DNA of 25,756 nucleotides, from positions 1 through 25,756 of the IMG/VR virus record IMGVR_UViG_3300010206_000001, one strand, 5' to 3'. Every line of letters starts with the position of its first letter. Position 1 is the first letter of the stretch. Under the pieces are notes generated by a model that made no database searches, had not been told where the DNA came from, and saw only the letters and a program-made list of their open reading frames with translations. Positions 7,322 to 13,229 of this stretch are shown in pieces. The stretch comes from a virus (taxonomy: Duplodnaviria; Caudoviricetes). The position numbers and the translations under genes are program-made.

Positions 7322-8797
7322 TTAAACGCCCAGATATTGCGGCAGGTAGGTCGCGGCCTGCGACACCAGCGTCGCCAGCTCGACTTCCAAGGCCTCGTAA
7401 TAGGGGCGGCTGTCGATGGTCACTTGGGTGATCGGCGCCGGCTCTTCCTGCGCGTAACTGACCGTGAATTTGCCCTGGCGCAGATTGTCGGCGCTGTTGC
7501 GCGCCCGCTCGAACCCCACCTTGAACCCGAGCACGGCCTTCTGCCTGATCAGCTCGGAGCCGATGGCCTTCATGTCGTTGAGCACATCCTCGACGCCCTG
7601 CGGCGTGACATTCTCGACGCCGAGGCGCAGGCGGATGGATTTCAGCAGCGCCAGCCAGGTCCAGTCGCGGCCGCGGGTCTTGTTGTAGAACCAGGCCAGC
7701 GGATCGTCGCTCGCGTTCCAGACGCCGGCGAAGACGAAACCGCTCTCGGAAATCGCGGTTTCGACGCCCGCCTCGCCGCGCTCGGTCACGCCGATATGAG
7801 CGGCGAGCAGCTCCTGCCCTTGGGTGGCGCCGTCGACCAGCGAGAACGTATAGACATTCTTGAGCCCGAGGATGCCCTGCACCGGCTGTCCCGACACGGA
7901 CCAGAACGGCATCCCGGAATGCTTGAAATCGACGCGGGCGAACAGGCCGAGCACCGAGGCGGCGCCGTCGCGATAGGCGGCCGATTCCCCGGCCTGCACG
8001 ATCTCCCAATTGTCGACGGGGATCAGGCGCTTGTCGGACAAAACCTCGCGCCAGGCCTGCGCATCGGCCATTGTCGTGCCGGGCGACCCGACCACGGCAT
8101 GGGCCAGCAGCGCGTTGAGAATGGACGGCAGCGCCGCGCAGACCGGGTCTTGCAACAGCCCGACGGTCACGGTCGCGGTCGCGCCGGTCCCGTCGCCGGA
8201 AATCGTGGCCGTGACATTCGCGCCGGCGGCATAGCTTCCCGGGTTGGTCAGCGTGACCCCGGTGACCTTGCCCGCGGAGAGCGTCACCGTGCCCGTGGCG
8301 CCGGCCGGCGAGAACGACACGGTCGCGGCGGTGTAGCCGGAGCCGGCGGTGGTGGCGACGGACTGGACGCCATATTTCATCTGCCCGGTATAGCCGGGCG
8401 CGCCGATCAGGCGCGGGACGACGCCCAACGTCGGCCCGGCTTTCAGCAGCGCGTACAGGCCGGTTCCCTGCGCGCGATCGCCGACGATGTTGACCGCCGT
8501 CTCCGCCAGACTGGCGCCCTTGGCCACGCGCACGGCGACGATTCGCGCCGAGGTTTGCAGATCGGCCATCTGGCTGTCGATCGCGAGCACGGCCTGATAC
8601 AGATCGCCGGTCCCGATCTTGGAAAGATACGATGCGTCCGACGAGTCGAACACAACCGGCGTGTCGAGCGGGAAATGCCCGGCGTCCGCGTCTTCCGACG
8701 GCAGCACGAGGCCGATGACCGAAAGGTCCGAAGCCTGTGCGGGCCTCGGGTCGGTGTTGTCGGCGTTGAAAATAATGCCATAGGCCGGCATGGTCAT
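7322..8797 (-). CDS. Contractile tail sheath protein (P2 FI-like)
   Basis: SVIGLV...FPLDTPV, TGLYALL, GVVPRLIGAPGYT, FWSVSGQ, NSADNLRQGK motifs; GGAG 9 nt upstream of ATG 8797. Confidence 0.93.
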   Translation of the reverse strand: MTMPAYGIIFNADNTDPRPAQASDLSVIGLVLPSEDADAGHFPLDTPVVFDSSDASYLSKIGTGDLYQAVLAIDSQMADLQTSARIVAVRVAKGASLAETAVNIVGDRAQGTGLYALLKAGPTLGVVPRLIGAPGYTGQMKYGVQSVATTAGSGYTAATVSFSPAGATGTVTLSAGKVTGVTLTNPGSYAAGANVTATISGDGTGATATVTVGLLQDPVCAALPSILNALLAHAVVGSPGTTMADAQAWREVLSDKRLIPVDNWEIVQAGESAAYRDGAASVLGLFARVDFKHSGMPFWSVSGQPVQGILGLKNVYTFSLVDGATQGQELLAAHIGVTERGEAGVETAISESGFVFAGVWNASDDPLAWFYNKTRGRDWTWLALLKSIRLRLGVENVTPQGVEDVLNDMKAIGSELIRQKAVLGFKVGFERARNSADNLRQGKFTVSYAQEEPAPITQVTIDSRPYYEALEVELATLVSQAATYLPQYLGV

Positions 8798-8815
8798 GTG
8801 CTTGCGCTCCATAGT

Positions 8816-8840
8816 GAGGCGCGCCCGAAAGCCGCGCTTC
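8816..8840. promoter_or_regulatory. Imperfect GC-rich stem-loop upstream of the sheath gene
   Basis: GAGGCGCG-CCCGAAAGC-CGCGCTTC; no U-tract follows, so not called a terminator. Confidence 0.4.
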
Positions 8841-8843
8841 GAG

Positions 8844-8851
8844 GTAAAAAA
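8844..8851. repeat. Target-site duplication, left copy (GTAAAAAA)
   Basis: Identical 8-mer at 11263-11270; both copies abut the inverted repeats. Confidence 0.93.
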
Positions 8852-8875
8852 GGCTATCCGTCATTTGAGGTTTAT
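8852..8875 (+). repeat. Left terminal inverted repeat
   Basis: GGCTATCCGTCATTTGAGGTTTAT versus right-end reverse complement GGCTATCCGTCATACGGGGTTGAT. Confidence 0.92.
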
Positions 8876-9249
8876 GGCTGAACGACGGGGCTGAAACGCG
8901 CTCCGTCATTTGGGGTTGATGAGCCGCCTTCGTCGTCTTGGACACGGACCCATTTTCCACCCTCAAACGACATTGCTCCACCGGGCATCCGTTCATAGCG
9001 GTGCGCCCAGCCAAATTCCCACCTGGTGAAGACCACCGTGGCGGGAAGTCCGTCGATCATCTGCAACTCGGCGGCGATCTGACGGCGCCTCCCTACACCA
9101 ACGAACGACGCTGAGACGATCTCCCGGAATGCTGGTGGGACATTCGGCGGCAAAACCCCGATCAGCGTGCCGAATGCTATTCGGGCGGCGGAACTGGCCG
9201 CGCCTTTCGGCTCGATCAGCTTGGATTTGTCGCCTTCGCGGTCAGCCAT
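8872..9249 (-). CDS. IS passenger gene 2, hypothetical protein (about 125 aa)
   Basis: Starts immediately after the passenger 1 stop (TGA GTG ATG) with GGAGG SD; stop lies inside the left inverted repeat. Confidence 0.65.
   Translation of the reverse strand: MADREGDKSKLIEPKGAASSAARIAFGTLIGVLPPNVPPAFREIVSASFVGVGRRRQIAAELQMIDGLPATVVFTRWEFGWAHRYERMPGGAMSFEGGKWVRVQDDEGGSSTPNDGARFSPVVQP
8902..8920 (+). repeat. Subterminal copy of the IR core at the left end
   Basis: TCCGTCATTTGGGGTTGAT, 17/19 identical to 8857-8875, offset 45 bp. Confidence 0.85.
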
Positions 9250-9252
9250 CAC

Positions 9253-9642
9253 TCACGCCTCCTTGAGGGCGGCGATGTCGTCGCTCGCGTACTTGCGCCA
9301 GTCTGCGCCGTACTTGAGAGCAAAGCCGATAAAACGATGCAGGACAAACGCTTGCTCATCCTCGCATTTCGTCGGGATCGCATGACCGGCGCGGCGGTAG
9401 GCGTGCGCCAGCGGAACGGTCCGAAAGTTCATCAACCCAAGCACTTCACCAAGTTCTGGCGTCAGAGCTTCAGGCCAGCCTGCTTTAGGCGGGATGTTTC
9501 CGCTCTCCCAGTCAAAGCCCGCGCCTTCAGCACAACTCTCGCAGAGCCAACGGCCATCAGGGGCAACCATTAACTCGTTTCGCGGGTGGCCACATTGCTC
9601 ATCGGAGCAGCTATCACAGCAATACATGATGCCGCGCGTCAT
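9253..9642 (-). CDS. IS passenger gene 1, Cys-rich hypothetical protein (129 aa)
   Basis: GGAGG SD before ATG 9642; CCDSC...CESC at the N-terminus; C-terminal EVLGLMNF...AGHAIPTKCEDEQAFVLH...KYGADWR region. Confidence 0.8.
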   Translation of the reverse strand: MTRGIMYCCDSCSDEQCGHPRNELMVAPDGRWLCESCAEGAGFDWESGNIPPKAGWPEALTPELGEVLGLMNFRTVPLAHAYRRAGHAIPTKCEDEQAFVLHRFIGFALKYGADWRKYASDDIAALKEA

Positions 9643-9651
9643 ATCGTCCTC

Positions 9652-9749
9652 CAATCTCATATGAGATTGACGTTTTATCACATACGAGATACGCGACAAT
9701 ATCTCATATGCGAAAAAGGTGCAGTTTGACTCCGAAACTCATATCAGGT
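9652..9749. promoter_or_regulatory. Divergent control region with four copies of palindromic ATCTCATATGAGAT
   Basis: Copies start at 9654 (perfect, inside the 18-bp palindrome 9652-9669), 9677 (2 mismatches), 9701 (2) and 9736 (3). Confidence 0.8.
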
Positions 9750-9754
9750 AGCGC
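9726..9754 (+). promoter_or_regulatory. Candidate sigma70-type promoter for a leaderless RHH/transposase transcript
   Basis: TTGACT-N17-TAGCGC-N7-ATG(9762); -10 is degenerate; no SD before the ATG. Confidence 0.5.
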
Positions 9755-9761
9755 CCAAAAG

Positions 9762-9959
9762 ATGGGGCGGACGAAGAAATGGGCAGAGGACATGCAAGCG
9801 AGGTTCCCGGCTGGAACGTTCGCCCGCATCGCCGTTGTCCTCGGCGACGGTGAAGACCGGACCGACTTTGTTCGCGAGGCTGTCGAGCGAGAGCTTAAGC
9901 GCCGTGAACGAAAAGACATTTCTGGTCGGAAACCAGACCGATCTTCTTCATCTGAATAA
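9762..9959 (+). CDS. Small ribbon-helix-helix-like DNA-binding protein (65 aa)
   Basis: MGRTKKWAEDMQARFPAGTFARIAVVLGDGEDRTDFVREAVERELKRRE: strand-helix-turn-helix pattern with RHH-like R-T-D-F-V-R-E-A-V second helix. Confidence 0.75.
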   Translation: MGRTKKWAEDMQARFPAGTFARIAVVLGDGEDRTDFVREAVERELKRRERKDISGRKPDRSSSSE

Positions 9960-11232
9960 TTTGCACGCGTCTTCAACGTACAAGGAAGGTGACAGCCTTA
10001 TCGTTGAAGCATCGACCCTAACGCCTCGCGTCCACAAATGCGGGTTGTTCTGCGAACTGGTCAAGAGCGGAACGAAGAAGGTCAGGTATCGTGACTTTCC
10101 TATTCAAGCTCAACCAACATGGCTTGAGATTTCAAGGCAGCGCTTTCGCTGTAAAGACCACGGCAAGACGATCTATGAAGACCTGCCGGATATCGACACA
10201 GCCGCTAGACTGACAGTCAGGTTCAAGGAACACCTTGAAAAGGAAGCTGTCGCACGCACGTTCATCGACGCGGCGCGGACGAATGGCGTTGATGAGAACC
10301 TTGTCCGCCGCCTCTTTGCCACCTACGCCAAGCTGCAACTCTCGAACTATACGGTTCGGATGCCTCGCGTCTTAGGGATGGATGAGAAGTACATCGCCAA
10401 AATCCCCCGGTTCGTGATCGGCGACGTTGAGAACAGGAAGCTTCTCGACATCCGAGAGAACCGCCTGAGCATGAACCTCGACACCTATTTCGAGAAGATG
10501 GAAGGGAAGGACGCGGTCGAGATCGTTTGCCAGGACATGTACAAGGGCTATCTGACGCTCACGAAACGCCACTTCCGCCGCGCCGCAACGGTCGTTGACA
10601 AGTTCCATGTCCTTGCGCTGTCCAACACCGCCGTTGAAATGGTTAGGCGCGACCTCAACAAGAGTTTAGGGAATAGGGAAAGGATAAAGCTTAAGAGCCG
10701 AAACAAGCTGTTTCTGGCCCGCTGGGACACATGCAAGGCGGAAACGCGCTCTCAGCTTGAGAAATTCTTTTCCCTATACCCTTTATTGGGGCAAGCTTAC
10801 TGGCTGAAAGAGCAGCTTTATGGCGTCTACGATTGCGAGAACAGGGCGCAGGCTGAACAGGCATTGACCGAATGGATGGGCAGCATCCCTCCCGAACTCG
10901 TCAAGCCGTTTACGGTCGTCACCACGGCAGTCAAGAACTGGCGACCCTACATGCTCCGCTACTTCGAGCACCCGCTGACCAACGCCTACACCGAATCGCT
11001 GAACGGCCTGGTCTCGGAGATCAACCGCGTGGGGCGCGGCTATTCGTTCGAGACACTCCGCGCCAAGGCGCTGCTCAAATACGGCGACGCCAAGCGGCTC
11101 ATCGACCTGTACGACTTCGACCTGATGAGCTGCCAGTCCGACGAGGAAATGGAGTTCCTGACGACGGCTGTCGTGTCCTCTGGCGTGGACATATCAACCC
11201 TGACCGACGCTTTGAAGCAGGGGACGCTTTAG
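9904..11232 (+). CDS. ISL3-family DDE transposase (start uncertain; GTG 9904 chosen)
   Basis: RYRDFP...RQRFRCKDH (zinc-finger region), RLTVRF, VLGMDE, CQDM, VDKFHV, TNAYTESLN motifs characteristic of ISL3 transposases; frame intact. Confidence 0.93.
   Translation: MNEKTFLVGNQTDLLHLNNLHASSTYKEGDSLIVEASTLTPRVHKCGLFCELVKSGTKKVRYRDFPIQAQPTWLEISRQRFRCKDHGKTIYEDLPDIDTAARLTVRFKEHLEKEAVARTFIDAARTNGVDENLVRRLFATYAKLQLSNYTVRMPRVLGMDEKYIAKIPRFVIGDVENRKLLDIRENRLSMNLDTYFEKMEGKDAVEIVCQDMYKGYLTLTKRHFRRAATVVDKFHVLALSNTAVEMVRRDLNKSLGNRERIKLKSRNKLFLARWDTCKAETRSQLEKFFSLYPLLGQAYWLKEQLYGVYDCENRAQAEQALTEWMGSIPPELVKPFTVVTTAVKNWRPYMLRYFEHPLTNAYTESLNGLVSEINRVGRGYSFETLRAKALLKYGDAKRLIDLYDFDLMSCQSDEEMEFLTTAVVSSGVDISTLTDALKQGTL
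11191..11209 (-). repeat. Subterminal copy of the IR core at the right end
   Basis: ATATCAACCC-N5-GACG at 11191 and at 11237, offset 46 bp. Confidence 0.7.
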
Positions 11233-11238
11233 GCCGAT

Positions 11239-11262
11239 ATCAACCCCGTATGACGGATAGCC
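11239..11262 (-). repeat. Right terminal inverted repeat
   Basis: ATCAACCCCGTATGACGGATAGCC. Confidence 0.92.
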
Positions 11263-11270
11263 GTAAAAAA
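11263..11270. repeat. Target-site duplication, right copy (GTAAAAAA)
   Basis: Identical to 8844-8851. Confidence 0.93.
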
Positions 11271-11298: not shown

Positions 11299-11736
11299 TC
11301 AGAGCGTCGCGGCGAGCGCAAACAGCGCGTCAATCTCGGCGGCAGTCTTGCCCATGGCGGACGCGAGCGCCGCCAGGATTGAATTGGACCTTTGGAATTC
11401 CTGCGCGAATTTGACCGCCATTTTCGCTGCGAACTGGTCGGCGACGGGAAGCGAGGAGATCGCCGTCAGAAGCGCGGCCGGGATCGAGGAATCCGTGGCG
11501 AGCGCCTCGTCTTCGGTGATGATCCCGATTTGCGCGGCGGCCTGAAAAAACTGCCGGCGACTGACGGACTGCGGGACGGGCGCCGGCGGCGGCGTGTATG
11601 GCGTCGGCGTGTTGCCGTCGGCGCGCCAGGCGCAATATGCGGCATAGTCGCTGTTGGTTGGATCGGACGGGATGAAAACGCCATCCGATCTGACGACAAT
11701 TTGCGGATTTTCCGTAAGCGCATAGTGAATCGTCAT
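11299..11736 (-). CDS. Tail fibre assembly/chaperone-like protein
   Basis: RSDGVFIPSDPTNSDYAAYCAWRADGNTP, VPQSVSRRQF, EIDALFALAATL; ATGA overlap with the fibre stop. Confidence 0.8.
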   Translation of the reverse strand: MTIHYALTENPQIVVRSDGVFIPSDPTNSDYAAYCAWRADGNTPTPYTPPPAPVPQSVSRRQFFQAAAQIGIITEDEALATDSSIPAALLTAISSLPVADQFAAKMAVKFAQEFQRSNSILAALASAMGKTAAEIDALFALAATL

Positions 11737-13229
11737 GCCAGCTCCGCGCTCGCCGTCCATGTCCCCACGCCGGTCCAGCCGTTCCAATTCGAAAGTCCGG
11801 TTCCGTTGAACCCAAATCTCGACGACGAAATAGCCGCCGCAACCGGCGTAAACGCGACATCGGTTCCAAAACTATAGTATCGCCATCCGCTCATAGCTAT
11901 CGATGGCGTGGCGCGCTTTGTCACGGTGAATCGCACATCCCCGTATCCAGCGGACGCGGTCAGCCCGCCGCCCAGCCACATATAGGGCTCGGGGCCGGTT
12001 TCGAAATATCGTTGGCACAAGGCCAATTCAACTCCATGCGGTCGGCGCTCAAACGCTTTTGCTGTCGTTCCCGATTCGAATTGCGGGAGCAACACTGTCC
12101 CGGGGCCCGCGAACTCGACATTGGTCTGCACGCCCGCCGCCAGCCCCGACACAGTCAGCGGCGCCGCGGCATACGAGCCGGAGCCGCTGTTTCCTGTTCC
12201 CTGCCAGACGCGGGCCTGCGCGGTTCCGGCTTGAGACAAAGTATAGGCGCCCCCCTCGATCAGCGCGCCCTCAATCGGCAGGATGATGGACGATCCTGCG
12301 CCGAGCAGGATCGTCGTGTCGATCCCGGCGACCGAAAAAGCGTAGGTCGCGCCGGCCGCGCCCGCCTTGACGCCGTCATGACCATAAACGCCGGCAGCGA
12401 GCGTCACCGTCCCCGAGACGCCGCGCTGATTGATCGCAAATGAGGCGTTGCGCAACAAATTGCGCAAAGCGGCAGGGTCGCCGGGCAATTGATCTGCGGT
12501 CGCCTTGCCGGACAGGTCTGTAAATGCTGGCTGCCTGTAAGACAGAGCGCCGAGCGCATCGATCCCGATGGCGAATTTTTTCGCCGGGGCCGCGGACACG
12601 ACGACGCCACCCATCGACGTCTCGGTCGGTGTAGGCAGCCGCGCCGCCGGCAGCGTCCCAGAGGTCATGTTCGACGCGTCGGAGATCGCGGCCAGCCCGT
12701 CGACCACCTGCTCCGCCAGCCCGTCGACTACGGCCTGGAAAATCGTGCCGTCCACCGACGCCGACACCCGCCAGTCGGCATAGGTCCCGGCGCCGGAGAC
12801 GTGATCGACATCGATGACGAGGACGCCGGCGCCGCGATCGTAGGAGACGAGCCGCCCCGACATCTGCACCGACGCGTCGCCGGTTTTCATCACGCCGATA
12901 TAGGCCGCGGCGGCGAAGCGCGCGCGATCCTCCTCCGCGAGGATCATCGTCTGCGCCCCGACGGCCACGGTCAGCTCGGAAGCCGACGAAGCCGAAAAAA
13001 TGACGCCGACCTGCGAGATTGCAACGACCTGCTCGTAGACGGGCCGCAGCGCATCGTCGAGCCGCTTCAGGCCAAACGATTGCAGCTCCGAAATCGCGGT
13101 CTCCCACGAGGGCGAGAACGGCTCGATCGCGCGCAGCCGCGCATCGAGCACGTTCATCGCCGCATTGAGCCGTCTCTCGTCGAACGCCTCGTCCGCGGAG
13201 AAGGTCAGCTCAGGATAGCTGCTGGCCAT
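11733..13229 (-). CDS. Tail fibre protein
   Basis: SGTLPAARLP, RNLLRNASFAINQRG, FERRPHGVELALCQRYF and terminal WTASAEL; position after baseplate genes. Confidence 0.8.
   Translation of the reverse strand: MASSYPELTFSADEAFDERRLNAAMNVLDARLRAIEPFSPSWETAISELQSFGLKRLDDALRPVYEQVVAISQVGVIFSASSASELTVAVGAQTMILAEEDRARFAAAAYIGVMKTGDASVQMSGRLVSYDRGAGVLVIDVDHVSGAGTYADWRVSASVDGTIFQAVVDGLAEQVVDGLAAISDASNMTSGTLPAARLPTPTETSMGGVVVSAAPAKKFAIGIDALGALSYRQPAFTDLSGKATADQLPGDPAALRNLLRNASFAINQRGVSGTVTLAAGVYGHDGVKAGAAGATYAFSVAGIDTTILLGAGSSIILPIEGALIEGGAYTLSQAGTAQARVWQGTGNSGSGSYAAAPLTVSGLAAGVQTNVEFAGPGTVLLPQFESGTTAKAFERRPHGVELALCQRYFETGPEPYMWLGGGLTASAGYGDVRFTVTKRATPSIAMSGWRYYSFGTDVAFTPVAAAISSSRFGFNGTGLSNWNGWTGVGTWTASAELA

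Follow-up and report, generated by a model that had tools for sequence, protein, structure and literature searches.

An intact ISL3 transporter insertion sequence in a phage tail operon and its mostly phage-resident relatives with a swappable gene slot

The 25,756-nt stretch analysed here (the window; positions 1 to 25,756 of the IMG/VR record IMGVR_UViG_3300010206_000001, Duplodnaviria, Caudoviricetes) carries an insertion sequence (IS) of the ISL3 type, in which genes for a putative regulator and a transposase face two leftward genes. Such a layout raises the question of what the additional genes do inside a transposable element and how they came to be there. The explanation we favour, and regard as probable, is that the window holds an intact ISL3 transporter IS from a mostly phage-resident clade, in which a 69-bp left end and the transposase frame a swappable slot; that this slot is occupied here by a captured phage cassette; and that the ribbon-helix-helix (RHH) protein of the cassette likely represses both the divergent cargo and a co-transcribed transposase.

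The mobile unit spans positions 8852-11262 (2411 bp). Its 24-bp inverted ends start with GG and are complementary at 20 of 24 positions, and GTAAAAAA, which borders the unit on both sides, occurs nowhere else on either strand of the window. The transposase matches the profiles DDE_Tnp_ISL3 (E = 3e-50), Zn_ribbon_ISL3 and HTH_Tnp_ISL3, matches NCBIfam NF033550 above its cut-off, and has D160, D232 and E364, which we take to be the catalytic residues, invariant in the alignment. A DDE transposase with a zinc ribbon and a helix-turn-helix (HTH) domain, imperfect inverted repeats starting with GG, and an 8-bp duplication place the unit in ISL3, and the non-transposition genes that lie between the repeats and moved with it make it a transporter IS. 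The unit moved whole. The sequence-only reading of this locus had proposed a cargo-carrying ISL3 element of this size, with exact ends, an 8-bp duplication and about 1 kb upstream of the transposase; family profiles, ends, duplication and insert all agree with that claim, and the DNA preceding the transposase inside the element measures 1052 bp. This length is counted to the GTG at 9904, the likely start because a relative with 88% identity (L002, described below) begins at the same point. A start at 9835 was ruled out by homologues. The GC content of the element is 0.563, compared with 0.640 for the rest of the window.

An alignment of 55 transposases led to 44 metagenome and 20 viral loci. 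Forty-seven rows, including L002 and the window, had at least 37% identity, and removing ten without a visible left end (nine of which begin within 370 bp of the transposase) and five duplicates left 32 elements. These form a single clade (support 100/99), whose size, as with all family sizes given here, is a lower bound. In every one of the 32, inserted DNA of 387-2010 bp separates the left end from the transposase; for this interval the same scan gave 132 bp in the distant simple ISL3 element L039. Exact 8-bp duplications, at different sites, were found in 24 of the 32, which indicates the element moves as a unit. The end profile was built on the first confident ends, and hence the end calls are partly circular, while the duplications are not.

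Among relatives, similarity ends either 69-83 bp from the left tip or, in another group, about 140-190 bp from it, and resumes at the transposase start. In the window, the left edge of the resulting slot is position 69 of the element, the end of an inner copy of the left-end motif, beyond which there is no likeness to relatives. L014 and L055 have transposase DNA that is 99.8% identical and cargo cores that are entirely different; L018 and L055 are 99.4% alike over 1.8 kb of cargo, with transposase DNA only 74.5% alike; and L053 has a chimeric left end (L053:4231-4345), in which one subfamily's end is joined to another's inner half at the common GAGGTTGAT motif. These mismatched identities, together with the chimera, show that cargo is exchanged between elements, the slot content changing faster than the transposase. 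The swapping may proceed by short-homology recombination among phages.

The window element and L002 are 87% alike in transposase DNA and have no common cargo. The latter, found in Rhodoblastus sphagnicola with 88% transposase protein identity, is the one match among species-representative genomes. Its left end (69 bp at 93%) and right end are common with the window element, and it has its own duplication, CAAAAAGA. Its 760-bp insert, unrelated to that of the window, holds two rightward genes, the second of which is HTH-like, as read from a motif, and has a stop codon overlapping the transposase GTG. This copy (L002:3181-7902) is single and frameshifted, and an IS21-type element breaks it immediately within its right end; its cassette contains TTGACA-17-TAATTT with a palindrome over the -10. 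In contigs of sequencing run X2, relatives about 85-95% alike were found over the left end with part of the window's cargo gene B, over the operator-RHH region, and over the transposase.

It had been suggested, from the window alone, that the family would have constant ends, transposase and RHH regulator, with variable divergent cargo. The ends, the transposase and the mostly divergent cargo hold (cargo genes point to the left end in 30 of 32 elements), but a constant RHH is ruled out: the window's RHH family ends at or beside the transposase start in 14 elements (13 besides the window), 12 elements have no regulator, and the nearest relative carries another cassette. The other regulators are an Arc-like RHH in two elements, a repressor with a DUF4160/DUF2442 pair in one, and an HTH-like gene in one, while L006 and L067 fit neither the regulator-bearing nor the regulator-less class. 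A TTGAC motif lies 28-49 nt before the estimated transposase start in 11 of the 12 regulator-less elements. In L051 (4462-5001), a GIY-YIG/T5orf172-like domain is fused to an RHH directly ahead of the transposase.

The cargo scan covered 76 chosen open reading frames (ORFs) from relatives. C5-methyltransferase genes are present in five of the 32 elements (L008, L023, L061, L063 and L066), each overlapped by an out-of-frame ORF matching phrog_1008, and these pairs presumably resemble two-polypeptide methyltransferases. PAPS-reductase-like genes occur in four elements and Rha/Ant-like (antirepressor-like) genes in three; Tad2, ASCH, Vut_1 and an exoribonuclease occur once each, Tad2 lying in L068 under an RHH of the window's family, and most other cargo ORFs are unnamed. 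The cargo at L062:3697-4923 comprises the Vut_1 queuosine-precursor transporter and an unnamed 200-residue gene (phrog_15826), and is possibly deazaguanine-related.

The two coupled leftward cargo genes described in the sequence-only reading are confirmed for the window, where genes A and B abut, both with GGAGG sites and both with homologues. In gene B the domain is complete and the natural stop is replaced by read-through into the left end; the gene has no match in Pfam, PHROG or NCBIfam. Gene A has no match in Pfam, PHROG, NCBIfam or PDB sequences, a fold search gave a best Z of 4.6, with none reaching Z 5, and one uncharacterised protein of Caulobacter phage Sansa matches it at E = 0.002. 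Free homologues of gene A (seven loci) occur within stretches of small phage genes, with methyltransferases next to two of them and integrases next to two.

The origin of the cassette is shown by viral loci without the element. The window's RHH family was found at 67 viral loci, of which 60 were examined for the neighbouring gene after leaving out seven (element copies, duplicates or too short). No ISL3 lies within 2.5 kb at 63 of the 67, hence the cassette is a free phage module that the element captured; judged by these loci, the RHH gene is such a captured module and itself part of the cargo. The next upstream gene is divergent, and mostly short, at 57 of 60 loci. Free RHHs stop a few codons past the RRE, whereas the window RHH frame continues into transposase DNA. 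At least two CTCATATGAG sites accompany 18 of 18 free RHHs of the window's subtype versus 0 of 21 of the other subtype, of which 15 of 21 have at least two TGATATCA-type sites, and palindrome counts in downstream control windows are near zero. Locus L144 is of the donor type: it has no transposase but carries the RHH, operators and a divergent operon whose last gene is a homologue of gene B. Among 102 genes from free cassettes, seven match PHROG (all function-unknown families) and four match Pfam. The free module has an Aca-like layout and is a possible marker for new anti-defence genes. Across the viral loci L073-L139 (examples of the module being L084:2350-2700 and L144:385-1322), the free module is common, with two to four subtype-specific palindromes and divergent short genes.

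The assignment of the window's regulator to the RHH proteins comes from matches that are weak but concordant. It scores 29.1 bits against NF041551, just under the cut-off of 30 (the copy in Caulobacter phage DMCA scores 33); Pfam RHH_1 is matched by 10 of 36 family members, the window protein not among them; the best PDB profile matches are AmrZ and CopG, both weak (E = 0.014-0.6); and the single-chain structure model has a pLDDT of 60. It is YlcI/YnfO-like, a type mentioned in phage satellites in excerpts of PMC13612085. Homologues place its start at ATG 9762 and rule out one at 9708, and its final 15 or so residues are read-through into transposase DNA. The operator-rich divergent control region and the overlap of a rightward RHH-like gene with the transposase start, both claimed earlier, stand: four CTCATATGAG-type sites sit in the 120 bp between the leftward genes and the RHH gene, overlapping both predicted promoters, and the genes overlap by 56 nt in different frames. 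In the whole 25.7 kb there are 12 CTCATATGAG-like sites, of which these four lie within 92 bp. The predicted rightward promoter ends 7 nt ahead of the RHH ATG, which makes a leaderless message likely. Sites and layout fit the prediction for an Aca-type regulator, which binds inverted repeats and represses its own and an adjacent operon. An RHH-transposase fusion by -1 frameshift was rejected, as the frames would need a +1 shift, which is not the usual IS signal.

The sequence-only reading placed the window element in a prophage, and residence in phage DNA is also seen among its relatives. Viral contigs account for nineteen loci of the clade. The transposase alone also led to 23 metagenome loci that were scanned: neighbours of phage type were seen at 16, one further locus is an IMG/VR contig, and the remainder are L010 in a bacterial gene, L011 beside IS21, and four uninformative loci. 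A single-protein scan and an end-motif scan of viral contigs each gave 0 matches, and three samples, each of 400 alphaproteobacterial genomes other than G001, gave no match, which describes the samples and does not amount to absence. A survey of GenBank phages (33 records) yielded an element with the window's layout in Caulobacter phage DMCA (2606 bp, duplication GAGAAACC, an RHH and three leftward genes); for DMCA itself, GenBank phages yielded no close relative. Distant ISL3 elements with exact duplications and co-directional cargo are present in Bcep22, Vibrio phages K256 and Val-yong3, and Escherichia phage Fraca, the K256 cargo being an adenine methyltransferase. Distant ISL3s in cultured Burkholderia, Vibrio, Escherichia, Lysinibacillus and Bacillus phages were recorded as L147, L150, L151, L152, L148 and L154; ends and duplications were found for the first four, and this distant set has co-directional small genes or methyltransferases.

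In the favoured explanation, the RHH would repress both divergent promoters via the four sites covering them, and the rightward message would carry the transposase as its second gene. In a newly entered cell, where the repressor is absent, both promoters would fire, so that a pulse of cargo proteins and transposase would be expected; the RHH would then shut off both, in the way that Aca regulators act on anti-defence operons. That cargo and transposase are repressed together is suggested by layout only. The slot might be refilled by phage-type recombination, at short homologies located at the RHH 3' end or transposase start on one side and at or near the GGTTGAT end motif on the other, and useful cargo, often DNA-modifying or counter-defence genes, could offset the cost to the phage. 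The element likely ferries counter-defence genes between phages, to which these genes may bring a counter-defence benefit. A more specific version, which we put forward tentatively and would not bet on, is that these elements are phage-specialist gene-capture shuttles for counter-defence, with the transposase plugged into early self-repressing cassettes, jumping only on entry into a new cell, and taking methyltransferases, Tad2, antirepressors and numerous small genes from one phage to another, unrelated one.

Several observations weigh against the favoured explanation. Regarding cargo, genes A and B match no named anti-defence family in the profile libraries scanned, and neither do nearly all of the 102 free-cassette genes, these libraries being general and not dedicated to anti-defence. 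Regarding control, RHH control is not needed by the clade, given the 12 regulator-less elements; the transposase starts 56 nt inside the RHH frame with no stop-start overlap and a weak ribosome site; a consensus promoter scan gave 0 promoters, those predicted having been read from homologues; and the co-variation of operators and RHH is partly shared descent. Regarding residence, two of the 17 phage calls hang on one integrase or HNH match, PHROG matches are not phage-specific, L032, a distant control locus, likewise lies in a phage, and two elements lie outside phage, L002 among conjugation-like genes and L010 in a bacterial gene. Lastly, no exact empty site was found: two sheath relatives (88-89%) are without the element, but their similarity ends at the duplication, and hence they are not exact empty sites. 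The empty-site prophage with a single target copy that had been named as support was accordingly not found.

The alternative that survives best, although we find it doubtful, is that the element keeps any phage fragment giving its transposase a promoter, the leftward genes being neutral passengers and phage DNA simply what lies nearby. The frames of outermost genes frequently run on into the left end, genes A and B are without a function match in libraries or fold search, and several copies are decayed (L002, L067), all of which speaks for this reading. Yet the 11 regulator-less elements with a TTGAC motif of their own still carry cargo, a methyltransferase or PAPS-reductase-like gene is present in nine of the 12 regulator-less elements, and a methyltransferase adjoins the transposase in related ISL3s of Vibrio, Lysinibacillus and Bacillus phages (inside proven ends in Vibrio).

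It is rather improbable that the cassette is active and RHH-controlled while the transposase is expressed from a weak internal promoter of its own, the overlap being a scar of capture. Such a reading would account for the 56-nt overlap and the GTG start in another frame, and regulator-less relatives do have their own promoter motif. However, no TTGAC motif lies within 110 nt upstream of the window transposase start, in 13 other elements the end of the RHH coincides with or adjoins the start of the transposase, and in L002 the stop of a different regulator overlaps that start.

Least probable is that the leftward promoter mainly re-starts host operon transcription downstream of the insertion, cargo identity being secondary: at 24 sites host genes run against the transposase, in the cargo direction, in 16 cases, with it in two, and mixed in six, and the window element splits a late tail operon, but the same bias would be expected from selection against host-driven transposase or from targeting, and an early promoter under repression would be ill suited to late tail genes. 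The bias itself has P = 0.0013 on 18 sites, obtained with a crude gene caller. Outward promoters are a subject of bioRxiv 2025.03.16.643550.

In comparison with known elements, the earlier suggestion of a possibly undescribed architecture holds in part. Passenger-carrying ISL3s are already established. In ISPpu12, as described in the annotation NZ_CP030755.1 and excerpts of PMC3735179, passengers and a divergently oriented regulator precede the ISL3 transposase (36% identical to that of the window), and there are 24-bp imperfect ends and 8-bp duplications as in the window element. The cargo of ISPpu12, however, is a fixed metal-resistance set (cadR, a cation transporter and lspA) running with the transposase, its regulator points away, and it is found on plasmids and chromosomes in several copies, whereas in the window element the regulator runs with the transposase and the cargo is divergent, phage-type and exchanged. 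ISPst2 (ISL3, 2985 bp) likewise has the GG..ATCC....GGTTGAT end type, an 8-bp AT-rich duplication and two passengers including a regulator, but these are an ArsR regulator and a permease, in near-identical isoforms across hosts, and no swappable phage cassette is reported in the excerpts of PMC6305408. ISStma11 differs in having mer genes downstream of the transposase. The window transposase is 35-36% identical to those of ISPpu12 and ISStma11, with different cargo, and the clade is separate in the tree from L032, which has the ISPst2 end type; judged by these comparisons, the window element is not ISPpu12, ISPst2 or ISStma11. By its GenBank features, the ISL3 of Burkholderia phage Bcep22 (2158 bp, exact 8-bp duplication) is similarly phage-borne, with two unnamed genes between left end and transposase, yet its transposase is 35% identical, its cargo is co-directional, no RHH cassette was seen, and it is a single recorded case.

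Other likenesses concern the cassette. Excerpts of PMC13551039 describe RHH control of two phage anti-defence operons by Aca14, where a small RHH binds inverted repeats over promoters and represses its own and a neighbouring small-gene operon. The likeness of the window element to such acr-aca systems is one of layout; no acr gene is recognised in it, and the regulated partner would include a transposase within a mobile element. Integron and mobile insertion cassettes also combine a fixed frame with an exchangeable gene slot. The window element differs from integrons in having no visible integrase or attC-type sites, a transposase inside the unit, and junctions varying by some bases. In searches of full-text literature, most subscription papers, ISfinder and TnCentral aside, no ISL3 branch resident in phages and bearing an exchangeable slot for phage cassettes turned up. 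What the present clade adds is phage specialisation and a fast-swapped slot with a captured, exchangeable phage switch.

When small accessory and counter-defence genes pass from one phage to an unrelated one, this is commonly ascribed to recombination, whether homologous or illegitimate. In the present case such genes travel on a transposon with exact ends, which exchanges them within a very short time and appears to borrow the infection-timed regulation of phages for its own transposase. The slots supply a clearly delimited group of candidate anti-defence genes, and a cultured system for tests exists in phage DMCA on Caulobacter vibrioides CB15. If the counter-defence shuttle version is true, new anti-defence genes could be listed directly from the cargo, and in Alphaproteobacteria the RHH family would be a new marker of the Aca kind.

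The coordinates of the element and its neighbours are presented in Table 1.

Table 1. Features of the window element and adjoining host genes (window positions).
Feature	Position	Strand	Basis or remark
Host phage tail sheath gene, left neighbour	7322..8812	-	phrog_23
Left 8-bp target duplication, GTAAAAAA	8844..8851	.	exact match to right copy
Left terminal inverted repeat, 24 bp	8852..8875	+	repeat search
Cargo gene B, 125 residues	8872..9249	-	homologues P0132, L013, L143-L145
Inner copy of left-end motif	8897..8920	+	repeat search; 45 bp in
Cargo gene A, 129 residues, Cys-rich N-part and conserved three-helix phage domain	9253..9642	-	9 homologues
Four palindromic CTCATATGAG-type sites, predicted RHH operators	9656..9747 (9656, 9679, 9703, 9738)	.	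0-2 mismatches
Predicted leftward promoter TTGTCG-16-TAAAAC	9672..9699	-	by eye against free cassettes
Predicted rightward promoter TTGACT-17-TAGCGC	9726..9754	+	spacing as in free cassettes L084, L109
RHH-type regulator, 65 residues, YlcI/YnfO-like	9762..9959	+	homologues, weak profile matches
ISL3 transposase, 442 residues, open frame	9904..11232	+	DDE_Tnp_ISL3 etc.
Inner copy of right-end motif	11191..11209	-	repeat search
Right terminal inverted repeat	11239..11262	-	repeat search
Right 8-bp target duplication, GTAAAAAA	11263..11270	.	exact match to left copy
Host phage gene after tail fibre, right neighbour	11299..11787	-	phrog_6034

The window record is a linear virus, 45% complete, whose minus strand bears portal, head, baseplate, tail fibre, sheath and tube genes. 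The insertion point is intergenic, with the sheath gene on one side and the gene that follows the tail fibre on the other. A circular intermediate with joined ends occurs in some ISL3 members; in contigs of four sequencing runs no such circle joint and no empty-site joint was found, contigs being prone to drop rare forms. Directly left of the target site, at 8815-8843, lies a GC-rich hairpin-like stretch that is kept upstream of the sheath gene in two related phages.

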